This document shows, in pieces, positions 50,889 to 56,865 of a stretch of 64,000 nt of DNA (positions are counted from its first letter, which is position 1; the number at the start of each line of letters is the position of its first letter). The stretch is from Escherichia coli (lineage in GTDB: Bacteria; Pseudomonadota; Gammaproteobacteria; Enterobacterales; Enterobacteriaceae): assembly GCF_003018115.1 (NCBI RefSeq), contig NZ_CP027457.1. One strand, given 5' to 3'. Position numbers and translations under genes: made by a program. The notes below the pieces were generated by a model. It saw only the letters and a program-made list of their open reading frames with translations, did not search any database and had not been told where the DNA came from.

Positions 50889-52991
50889 TTACTCAAATCT
50901 CCACGCAATATTCATGCCGACACCATAATTTCGTCCGGGCGAAGGTTCGTAATATCGCCCGTTTGACTCATTGACAATGACAGAACCAACGTATTCTTTA
51001 TCGAATAAATTATCGACACGACCAAATAAATCCACAGTTAAATTGTGGTAATTGTATTTATACCCGGTGAATAAGCCGACGAGAGTATAAGACGGCGCTT
51101 TTGCCGTATTTTCATCATCTGCCATAATATCGCCCATATAACGCGCTTCCGTGCCTGCATACCAACCATCTTCCGGTACATAACCTATCGACGCAAAGCC
51201 CATATTACGGGCGATCCCTGGCATCCGATTACCGTTACAATCCTGTTCATTGCAAACATTGCTGCGATAGGTCGCATCAAGCCAGGTCCAGGACGCGTTT
51301 ACGCGAAAATCTCCTGCGAAACGTTGATCCCATGCCAGTTCAGCGCCTTGACGACGGGTCTTTCCGGCATTTTTGTAAGTCGTACGCCCACCGCTACTGC
51401 TATCGACAACAATTTCATCATCAGTGTCGGTCTGAAACAATGCGAGACTAAGCAGCCCATCACCAATACGCGTTTTACTGCCGATCTCAATTGTATCGTT
51501 GGTGGATGGTTTTAAACCAAAGTTCATACCGCTTTGCCCATCAGCACGATAAGACAGCTCATTAATCGTCGGCGTTTCAAAACCTCGCCCGGCTGCCAGA
51601 TAGATATTCCAGGCATCGGTCATTGCATATTTTAACGAACCGGCAGGTAGCCATTTATGATAACTGGCATCACCGCTGTCATCGCCGTTACCCGGAGTAA
51701 CGTAATGGTCGTTGGAATCAAACCACACGGAGCTGTAGCGCACGCCAGCATCCAGCGACAGTTTTTCGCTCAGCTGCCACTGCGTCTGTAAATAGGGATC
51801 GATGTTCCACATCAGATTGCGTTCGTCGCGACGCAACTCACCTTTTTGCCCGTACTCCGGCATGCCGCTATTCAGGCGGAAGTTATTGTAGCCCTTGCGG
51901 TTTTCACTCATGTTTTCGTAGTTCAGGCCGGTAGTGAACGTGACCGGAACGCCCAGTTCACCACGGTGTGTCCAGCGGCTGTCTATCCCCTGGTAATGGC
52001 GTTGCAGGGTAATCACGCCGCCCGCATGTGACGGGTTAAGTTGTGGTGCCATGGGTATTGACTGGTACTGGGTCGTTTCTCGCTCTCCGGCATACATCAT
52101 CACACTCATATCATCTTGCGCGCTCAGGCTACGTTCATAGCGCAACCCAGCCTGAGTTTGCTTGATGGTTTTTCGCGTGTCGTACTGTTCAGCGCGTGGC
52201 GCGTGTTGCGGATTCGCCTTCCATTCTGCTTCGGTTAGCCCACCTGGGTCATCTGCTTTGATATCCACGCTATTGAAAATCAGGCTTACTTTGCTGGCGT
52301 CATCAATGCGTACGCCCAGTTTGGCATTGGCTAAATTTTTCTGTGCGCCGCTATGGTCACGATAGCCGTGGGTCGTAAAACGCGTGGTTGAGACGGTGTA
52401 ATCGACATCGCCGGGCTGTGTGCCGTCGCCCGTTGCACCCGTTGCTTTGAGCCCATAGCGCCAGCTGCCAAAACTGCCGTAGTAACTGCTGGCTTCAATG
52501 GTTGGTGGCTGTTGCCCGGTCTGGGTGGTGACATTCATTACACCGCCAGACGCGTTGCCATACAGGGCAGAGAAGGGGCCACGCAGCACTTCCACATTTT
52601 GCACACTGCTTAAATCGATGTTGGATGTTTGCCCTTGCCCGTCGGGCATGGTAGCGGGAATACCGTCCACATACAGGCGAATACCGCGAATTCCGTAAGT
52701 GGAGCGGGAGCCAAATCCGCGAATCGACAGCTGTAAATCTTGCGCATAGTTCTGCCGATTTTGTACCTGCAAACCAGGCACGCTGGTCAGTGATTCGGAC
52801 AAGTTAATGCGCGGTGTTGCCAGGCGCATCTCCTCGCCATCCACCACGCTTACTGCTGCTGGGGTATCCAGTTCTGAAACCACCTGCGGTGCGGCACTGA
52901 CAATCATGGTCTGTTCATCAGCGGCAAAAACAACGGGGGAAAGGGCAAGTAGTGCGGGCAAAACGGTCTGTCGGACGGAAAAAATCTTCAT
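50889..52991 (-). CDS. yncD: TonB-dependent outer-membrane receptor
   Basis: 700-aa ORF; signal peptide, plug, C-terminal beta-barrel ending ...NIAWRFE (terminal aromatic). Confidence 0.9.
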   Translation of the reverse strand: MKIFSVRQTVLPALLALSPVVFAADEQTMIVSAAPQVVSELDTPAAVSVVDGEEMRLATPRINLSESLTSVPGLQVQNRQNYAQDLQLSIRGFGSRSTYGIRGIRLYVDGIPATMPDGQGQTSNIDLSSVQNVEVLRGPFSALYGNASGGVMNVTTQTGQQPPTIEASSYYGSFGSWRYGLKATGATGDGTQPGDVDYTVSTTRFTTHGYRDHSGAQKNLANAKLGVRIDDASKVSLIFNSVDIKADDPGGLTEAEWKANPQHAPRAEQYDTRKTIKQTQAGLRYERSLSAQDDMSVMMYAGERETTQYQSIPMAPQLNPSHAGGVITLQRHYQGIDSRWTHRGELGVPVTFTTGLNYENMSENRKGYNNFRLNSGMPEYGQKGELRRDERNLMWNIDPYLQTQWQLSEKLSLDAGVRYSSVWFDSNDHYVTPGNGDDSGDASYHKWLPAGSLKYAMTDAWNIYLAAGRGFETPTINELSYRADGQSGMNFGLKPSTNDTIEIGSKTRIGDGLLSLALFQTDTDDEIVVDSSSGGRTTYKNAGKTRRQGAELAWDQRFAGDFRVNASWTWLDATYRSNVCNEQDCNGNRMPGIARNMGFASIGYVPEDGWYAGTEARYMGDIMADDENTAKAPSYTLVGLFTGYKYNYHNLTVDLFGRVDNLFDKEYVGSVIVNESNGRYYEPSPGRNYGVGMNIAWRFE

Positions 52992-53127
52992 GAAAAAAGC
53001 CAGGTTAAGAATGGGAAAACGCCGTTATGGTAATGAAATTGTAAATTTATGGAAAACGAAACGGCACGATACGTTAAGTAATTGAGAAAATTGTAGTCGT
53101 AACGGCAAGAAATGCTCCACATTTGAG

Positions 53128-53146
53128 AAAATAATGATTACCATTC
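53128..53146 (+). promoter_or_regulatory. Fur-box-like site (AAAATAATGATTACCATTC) in the yncD-yncE divergent intergenic region
   Basis: About 15 of 19 matches to GATAATGATAATCATTATC; adjacent to a TonB-dependent receptor gene. Confidence 0.35.
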
Positions 53147-53232
53147 CCATTTATAACAAGAGCGTAACGATGATTACGCTTAGCGAAGCATTGTGAAGCA
53201 GCAAAAATATCGGTTCATCAAAGGGAGTCGTC

Positions 53233-54294
53233 ATGCATTTACGTCATCTGTTTTCATCGCGCCTGCGTGGTTCATTACTGTTAGGTTCATTGCTTGTTGC
53301 TTCATCATTCAGTACGCAGGCCGCAGAAGAAATGCTGCGTAAAGCGGTAGGTAAAGGTGCCTACGAAATGGCTTATAGCCAGCAAGAAAACGCACTGTGG
53401 CTCGCCACTTCGCAAAGCCGCAAACTGGATAAAGGTGGCGTGGTTTATCGTCTTGATCCGGTCACTCTGGAAGTGACGCAGGCGATCCATAACGATCTCA
53501 AGCCGTTTGGTGCCACCATCAATAACACGACTCAGACGTTGTGGTTTGGTAACACCGTAAACAGCGCGGTCACGGCGATAGATGCCAAAACGGGCGAAGT
53601 GAAAGGCCGTCTGGTGCTGGATGATCGTAAGCGCACGGAAGAGGTGCGCCCGCTGCAACCGCGTGAGCTGGTAGCTGATGATGCCACGAACACCGTTTAC
53701 ATCAGTGGTATTGGTAAAGAGAGCGTGATTTGGGTCGTTGATGGCGAGAATATCAAACTGAAAACCGCCATCCAGAACACCGGTAAAATGAGTACCGGTC
53801 TGGCGCTGGATAGCAAAGGCAAACGTCTTTACACCACTAACGCTGACGGCGAATTGATTACCATCGACACCGCCGACAATAAAATCCTCAGCCGTAAAAA
53901 GCTGCTGGATGACGGCAAAGAGCACTTCTTTATCAACATTAGCCTTGATACCGCCAGGCAGCGTGCATTTATCACCGATTCTAAAGCCGCAGAAGTGTTA
54001 GTGGTCGATACCCGTAATGGCAATATTCTGGCGAAGGTTGCGGCACCGGAATCACTGGCTGTGCTGTTTAACCCAGCGCGTAATGAAGCCTACGTAACGC
54101 ATCGTCAGGCAGGTAAAGTCAGTGTGATTGACGCGAAAAGCTATAAAGTGGTGAAAACGTTCGATACGCCGACTCATCCGAACAGCCTGGCGCTGTCTGC
54201 CGATGGCAAAACGCTGTATGTCAGTGTAAAACAAAAATCCACTAAACAGCAGGAAGCTACCCAGCCGGACGATGTGATTCGTATTGCGCTGTAA
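53233..54294 (+). CDS. yncE: seven-bladed beta-propeller periplasmic protein (YncE family)
   Basis: 353-aa ORF with signal peptide. Confidence 0.85.
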   Translation: MHLRHLFSSRLRGSLLLGSLLVASSFSTQAAEEMLRKAVGKGAYEMAYSQQENALWLATSQSRKLDKGGVVYRLDPVTLEVTQAIHNDLKPFGATINNTTQTLWFGNTVNSAVTAIDAKTGEVKGRLVLDDRKRTEEVRPLQPRELVADDATNTVYISGIGKESVIWVVDGENIKLKTAIQNTGKMSTGLALDSKGKRLYTTNADGELITIDTADNKILSRKKLLDDGKEHFFINISLDTARQRAFITDSKAAEVLVVDTRNGNILAKVAAPESLAVLFNPARNEAYVTHRQAGKVSVIDAKSYKVVKTFDTPTHPNSLALSADGKTLYVSVKQKSTKQQEATQPDDVIRIAL

Positions 54295-55906: not shown

Positions 55907-56172
55907 TGCTCTCCCTGATTGCTTTAATGAAAAAGTCATATAAGTTGCCATGAACAATGTTTATTCATCCTGGCGATGATAGTTATCACCATTATTCTTT
56001 ATGGGTATAAAACTATCGGCGCAGCATCCTACCCGTTATCGATAAACGATGCAAAACATCCCCTTACAATCCTGAAGGGGAATAATACAACTGACGAAAA
56101 AATGACAAATCCTTTTGCTGGTTAACCTGTGTACTGTCCTACACTTAATCTTTAAAAGATTGTGAGGGGCAT

Positions 56173-56790: not shown

Positions 56791-56865
56791 GTGGGATACC
56801 AGAAGATTATGTTATTTATTATTCAGTAACTTTATCCACAATGATGGGCGTAATTAATTAAATTC

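Follow-up and report, generated by a model that had tools for sequence, protein, structure and literature searches.

We conclude that the 19-bp sequence at positions 53130-53148 of the window (the whole 64,000-nucleotide stretch of Escherichia coli DNA that was analysed) is very probably the Fur operator of the yncE promoter, at which bound Fur would occlude RNA polymerase, with the small RNA RyhB as a second layer of control. The yncE Fur box is real, functional and conserved. It is also already known: reports of it go back to 2003, and several genome-wide binding studies have confirmed it. It carries little weight as a discovery, yncE having long been counted in the Fur regulon of E. coli. 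What is added here is the correct register of the box, its overlap with the promoter, its footprint across genera, and the observation that the box follows yncE rather than the neighbouring gene pqqU across the Enterobacteriaceae.

The window contains the divergent pqqU(yncD)/yncE pair of E. coli, with a gap of 241 bp between the two genes as judged from the list of open reading frames and the annotation. The gene controlled by the box, yncE (53233-54294, + strand; a 353-aa ORF), is annotated as encoding a periplasmic 7-bladed beta-propeller protein. Its divergent neighbour, pqqU (50889-52991, - strand; a 700-aa ORF), encodes a TonB-dependent PQQ transporter according to the annotation and its published function. 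An 801-bp query spanning the gap matched 5411 of 5426 complete E. coli genomes, in which the two genes are annotated as "TonB-dependent receptor PqqU" and "YncE family / 7-bladed beta-propeller protein", and the gene order in the K-12 record (mcbR, pqqU, yncE, ansP) is the same as here. The 61-bp segment carrying the promoter and the box (53105-53165) is present in 5410 of the 5426 genomes, with at least 99% identity in 3932 of those. Between the window and MG1655, the intergenic region differs at three positions (53026, 53057 and 53068), all of them outside the box. The box is that of yncE in E. coli K-12 (b1452), at the same locus and with the same sequence; apart from the window's origin in another E. 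coli lineage, there is no difference of substance.

The first-pass annotation had likened the 19-mer AAAATAATGATTACCATTC to the 19-bp Fur consensus. This sequence occurs exactly at 53128-53146, inside the pqqU/yncE gap, but in that register only 6/19 positions agree with the consensus GATAATGATAATCATTATC, and the register was rejected in favour of a better one lying 2 bp to the right. The quoted stretch covers 17 of the 19 positions of this box, AATAATGATTACCATTCCC (53130-53148), which matches the consensus at 14/19 positions on the + strand and at 15/19 on the - strand, and is the single best match to the Fur consensus on both strands of the entire 64-kb window. The claimed likeness was, thus, genuine, and its coordinates were 2 bp out of register.

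Dinucleotide-shuffled versions of the window yielded 0.18 matches of at least 15/19 per 64 kb. As 15% of the shuffled 64-kb sequences held one or more such matches, the motif score alone is not decisive. When the 241-bp intergenic region was shuffled, a score of 15/19 was reached in 10 of 5000 trials. Measured with the same yardstick, the established Fur-controlled intergenic regions of K-12 scored 13 (fepA-fes), 16 (fepD-entS), 15 (fepB-entC) and 16 (ryhB) out of 19, and the 15/19 of the present box falls within this 13-16 range of accepted Fur sites. The hexamer and 7-1-7 motif models placed the site at the same location as the 19-mer model, and neither of the two detected a second strong Fur site in the pqqU/yncE gap. 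Shifted, overlapping registers were observed around the box at 53124, 53127 and 53136, as is usual for Fur sites. The resemblance is therefore genuine, is of the kind seen at accepted Fur boxes, and goes beyond chance at this position.

Other Fur-like sequences were also noted. Two further 19-mers in the window, at 55978-55996 and 56805-56823, score 14/19; the annotated start of ansP is ∼70 bp downstream of one of them, and the other is between yncG and yncH. These are likely to be chance matches in AT-rich spacers. Expression of ansP in the Δfur background is down by 1.39 log2 in MG1655 and unchanged in W3110. In E. coli, the sequence ATGATTAC occurs twice in this region, at 53134-53141 within the Fur box and at 53171-53178 within the loop and 3' arm of the leader hairpin described below; the second copy is not kept as a Fur-like sequence in other genera.

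The box corresponds to 1524918-1524936 in W3110 and to 1523204-1523222 in NC_000913.3, that is, to 1521227-1521245 in the older coordinates if the shift between the two numberings is 1977 bp, which we take to be the case and which is consistent with the W3110 result. Published Fur ChIP-exo peaks for yncE lie at 1521238-1521250 in MG1655 and at 1524928-1524940 in W3110 (Gao et al. 2023, PMC10164565). The MG1655 peak table of that study appears to use the old coordinates, and its gene columns appear to be displaced by one row, judging from the rows for adhP, yddA and ydcM. Both peaks span -93 to -80 relative to the yncE ATG; they overlap the right half of the box, and their centres lie a few bp rightward of its own.

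Expression data from the same study showed that yncE is derepressed in Δfur derivatives of 8 out of 9 strains, by 3.1-8.1 log2: 3.10 in MG1655, 8.14 in W3110, and 5.30, 5.51, 5.22, 4.20, 3.65 and 5.07 in the others (PMC10164565). Iron limitation is reported to induce yncE 16-fold, of which ∼3-fold comes from RyhB, and a fur mutant makes the YncE protein in excess. Binding of Fur upstream of yncE has been published, as has the detection of a Fur box in the yncE promoter by a weight matrix; yncE belongs to the Fur-1 and Fur-2 iModulons, and to CFT073's direct Fur regulon, with conserved sites. The yncE Fur box is credited to McHugh et al. 2003 in passages of two later papers (as cited in PMC8896160 and PMC4666370), and the Fur ChIP-exo or ChIP-seq studies covering it are PMC4676285, PMC10164565 and PMC7157518. 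Our literature search found no footprint, EMSA, Fur titration or point-mutation data on the yncE box, and yncE is not mentioned in the Fur information-theory paper of Chen 2007. Mapped onto the present sequence, the published data show that Fur occupies the box and that yncE expression depends on Fur and on iron. The yncE half of the iron-responsive control that had been proposed for both genes is, hence, borne out.

MG1655 has a second Fur ChIP-exo peak nearby, at 1520944-1520980 in the old coordinates, which maps to ∼52847-52883 of the window, in the 5' coding region of pqqU. The sequence there is GC-rich and without a Fur-like motif, the nearest weak motif being at 52893-52911 (13/19), and the source table flags this peak as not associated with regulation.

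We scanned for YncE in one genome per species and obtained 80 loci from ∼25 enterobacterial genera. Genera having the box core include Escherichia, Salmonella, Citrobacter, Enterobacter, Klebsiella, Raoultella, Kluyvera and Atlantibacter. The core TAATGATT was found no more than 220 bp upstream of the yncE ATG in 78 of the 79 loci having any upstream sequence; locus L043, which has none, was left out of the count, and the one exception, L064, has only 79 bp upstream. The longer core, TAATGATT..ATTC.CA, is invariant in all 78 testable loci, ∼100 bp upstream of yncE. In 75 loci the 19-mer starts between -97 and -107 of the ATG; in the other three, whose leaders are shortened, it starts at -58 or -62. 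Intergenic regions were aligned in two sets, of 17 and of 64 sequences; leaving aside the ribosome-binding site, conservation within the gap is highest at TAATGATTAyyATTCnCA and the block GCTCCACATT just upstream of it.

In nine Citrobacter loci (L008, L009, L011, L013, L016, L018, L019, L023 and L077), the 3 kb upstream of yncE contain no homologue of pqqU. All of these loci keep the box, at -100 to -103, and besides the box they keep the -35 block. At L011, a same-strand ORF for a curA-like reductase (1666-2736 of that locus) directly precedes yncE. As the box is retained at yncE in these loci that lack pqqU, it belongs to yncE.

We next consider how the box is placed relative to the yncE promoter. 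The putative -35 element is TCCACA (53116-53121, + strand; 4/6), which lies within the conserved block GCTCCACATT and is more than 90% conserved across genera. The putative -10 element, TACCAT (53139-53144, + strand), is in the right half of the Fur box, at a spacing of 17 bp; its TAyyAT pattern is conserved, other genera having TACTAT or TATTAT, with T, A, A and T kept at the key positions. The probable transcription start is A53149 (+ strand). In the 17-genus alignment, both this base and the preceding C53148 are invariant, and the 5' primer of a published pXG10-yncE GFP fusion to the yncE 5' region begins exactly at A53149. From these features we infer a sigma-70 promoter for yncE with +1 near 53149. 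The hexamers are weak, with 8/12 matches in all, and a sigma-70 scan with a threshold of 9 called no + strand promoter for yncE because of this weakness. An alternative -10, TATAAC at 53152-57, was rejected for lack of conservation and because no -35 lies at a suitable distance from it.

With +1 at 53149, the Fur box would span approximately -20 to -2 of the promoter. A Fur box placed over the promoter spacer and the -10 is the standard arrangement for promoter occlusion. The coincidence of the putative -10 with the right half of the box also raises the question whether the block is conserved merely as a promoter (the -10 plus its spacer), or as the site of some other regulator, its likeness to a Fur box being coincidental; MarA, for example, is also given as a regulator of yncE in a published table. 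However, the invariant TAATGATT (53132-53139) sits in the promoter spacer, outside any hexamer. Spacer sequence is not constrained by a promoter alone, and yet it is invariant here, which argues for a bound protein. That the protein is something other than Fur is contradicted by the ChIP-exo peaks of Fur on this block in two strains and by the large Fur-dependent changes of yncE in eight strains. We therefore regard a coincidental likeness as highly improbable, and read the block as a Fur operator placed over the yncE promoter.

The leader of yncE contains a 7-bp hairpin on the + strand at 53161-53180, in which AGCGTAA (53161-53167) pairs with TTACGCT (53174-53180) around the loop CGATGA. Its covariation is very strong: among 73 distinct sequences, 94.9% of the hairpin cells were paired, against 34-53% in slid controls, and 122 cells were changed on both sides, a result that none of the 500 shuffles reached. 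All seven pairs covary, and the loop is conserved as C(C/G)ATGA. The hairpin has 63 G.U cells against 13 A.C cells. As G.U is far above A.C, it is the + strand RNA that folds, and this in turn supports a yncE start upstream of 53161. Taken as a whole, the yncE leader has no exceptional stability (z +1.2); the hairpin alone stands out. A search of the leader against Rfam gave no family, all matches having E>2. The hairpin could stabilise the 5' end of the mRNA or take part in control by RyhB/Hfq.

Downstream of the hairpin, at 53184-53201 (+ strand), is a conserved block, CGAAGCATTGTGAAGCAG (consensus GGAAGCnATGTGAAGCAG), that is complementary to the RyhB core, ∼nt 41-58 of the RNA, with which it has a predicted duplex. 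Activation of yncE by RyhB has been reported from ribosome profiling, reporter fusions and RIL-seq. The block is the likely pairing site for this activation. The full-length RyhB duplex has a predicted energy of -41.2 kcal/mol, which is uninformative since 9.6% of shuffles are as good, and the core-only duplex of -23.1 kcal/mol is equalled by 6.5% of background windows. As these energies are not significant against background, the case for pairing rests on the conservation and on the published data.

The three loci with shortened leaders, where the box is at -58 or -62, are L029 (Pseudescherichia vulneris), L035 (Escherichia sp. ESNIH1) and L037 (UBA7338). The aligned Pseudescherichia leader (L029) has neither the hairpin nor the RyhB-complementary block, and amounts to a natural deletion of the leader; L035 and L037 were left out of the alignment over this stretch.

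These observations suggest the following model for yncE, in which occlusion, like the exact promoter elements and the start site, is read from sequence features. When iron is sufficient, dimers of Fe2+-Fur would occupy the 19-bp box. With the spacer, the -10 and the bases up to the start covered, RNA polymerase would be excluded and yncE would be off. Upon a drop in iron, Fur would leave and yncE would be transcribed. Low iron would also allow synthesis of the Fur-repressed sRNA RyhB, which would pair with the yncE leader and raise yncE further, so that Fur and RyhB together would make up a coherent two-layer iron response. In this respect yncE resembles cirA, with which it is grouped in the literature: both combine transcriptional repression by Fur with post-transcriptional activation by the Fur-repressed RyhB. 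The mechanism at cirA has been worked out experimentally, whereas at yncE both the site of pairing (53184-53201) and the part played by the hairpin are our predictions. YncE is a vaccine antigen and a serodiagnostic antigen, and tight iron control by Fur and RyhB bears on when it is expressed in the host.

The second half of the proposal, iron-responsive control of pqqU by the same box, is not supported as a general rule. In Δfur MG1655, pqqU is unchanged (log2 fold change 0.12, p 0.39), and the gene is missing from the Fur regulon in seven of nine strains. The literature describes YncD/PqqU as regulated by neither Fur nor iron, as taking no part in iron uptake and as an importer of PQQ (Grinter & Lithgow 2020; Hantke & Friz 2022), and a 2025 paper on PqqU contains nothing on Fur control. 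Yet fur deletion raises pqqU by 2.95 log2 in W3110 (p 2.7e-51) and by 2.02 log2 in strain 042, and the W3110 ChIP-exo peak is assigned to both yncE and pqqU (PMC10164565). This published response of pqqU in two strains conflicts with the textbook statement, and the box might then be a bidirectional operator that also represses pqqU, a reading that we consider unlikely.

The putative pqqU promoter, judged from its sequence, consists of a -35 TTTCCA (53055-53050) and a -10 TACCAT (53032-53027) on the - strand, separated by a 17-bp spacer. The blocks conserved on the pqqU side of the gap among 64 loci (53027-33, 53037-44, 53049-55 and 53073-77) fit such a - strand promoter. The Fur box lies at least 75 bp from its -35, and neither overlaps nor abuts this putative promoter, which speaks against direct control of pqqU, as does the persistence of the box in the Citrobacter loci without pqqU. 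Repression could possibly come about by other routes, namely Fur spreading from the main box towards the pqqU promoter, a weak secondary site, or a roadblock to a pqqU-directed transcript starting in the yncE leader. With regard to a secondary site, the putative pqqU promoter is overlapped by a 19-mer that weakly resembles a Fur box (53029-53047; 11/19). With regard to a roadblock, the scan called a single promoter-like site, on the - strand (TTCACA at 53197 and AATCAT at 53170), and the box would be downstream of its start; however, such a match is at the level of shuffled sequence, with 1 found against 1.0 expected.

The two K-12 strains differ in the wild type also. In W3110, where repression of yncE is tight (∼18 units), pqqU stands at 4-5 units, while in MG1655 yncE is leaky (∼300 units) and pqqU is already at its Δfur level (∼32 units). 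This pattern fits a repression of pqqU that is lost first as Fur occupancy falls. The intergenic regions of MG1655 and W3110 are identical; the difference in the pqqU response is therefore physiological and not encoded in cis. Derepression of pqqU could also be indirect, for example, through supercoiling coupling from the very active divergent yncE promoter. The W3110/MG1655 pattern is equally compatible with secondary repression at high occupancy and with an indirect effect. It is, thus, a doubtful though conceivable proposition that the yncE box, perhaps with weak flanking sites, exerts a threshold-type repression on pqqU that shows only when Fur occupancy is high, which would be so in W3110 and 042 but not in the data sets for MG1655. 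If true, threshold repression would link the import of PQQ, a redox cofactor, to iron status, against the current view of PqqU as Fur-independent.

The enterobactin operators (fepA-fes, fepD-entS and fepB-entC) offer a comparison with the pqqU/yncE gap, since they also have a Fur box of similar score in the gap shared by a divergent pair. Fur strongly represses both operons of each enterobactin pair in all strains. At pqqU/yncE, in contrast, yncE alone is consistently repressed and pqqU responds in two of the nine strains; unlike the setting of the enterobactin cluster, pqqU transports PQQ rather than iron.

A further feature, just upstream of the putative pqqU promoter, is an imperfect palindrome at 53058-53077, GAAACG-N8-CGTTAA (consensus TTAACn-N8-CGTTAA). 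It is a candidate site for a regulator of pqqU.
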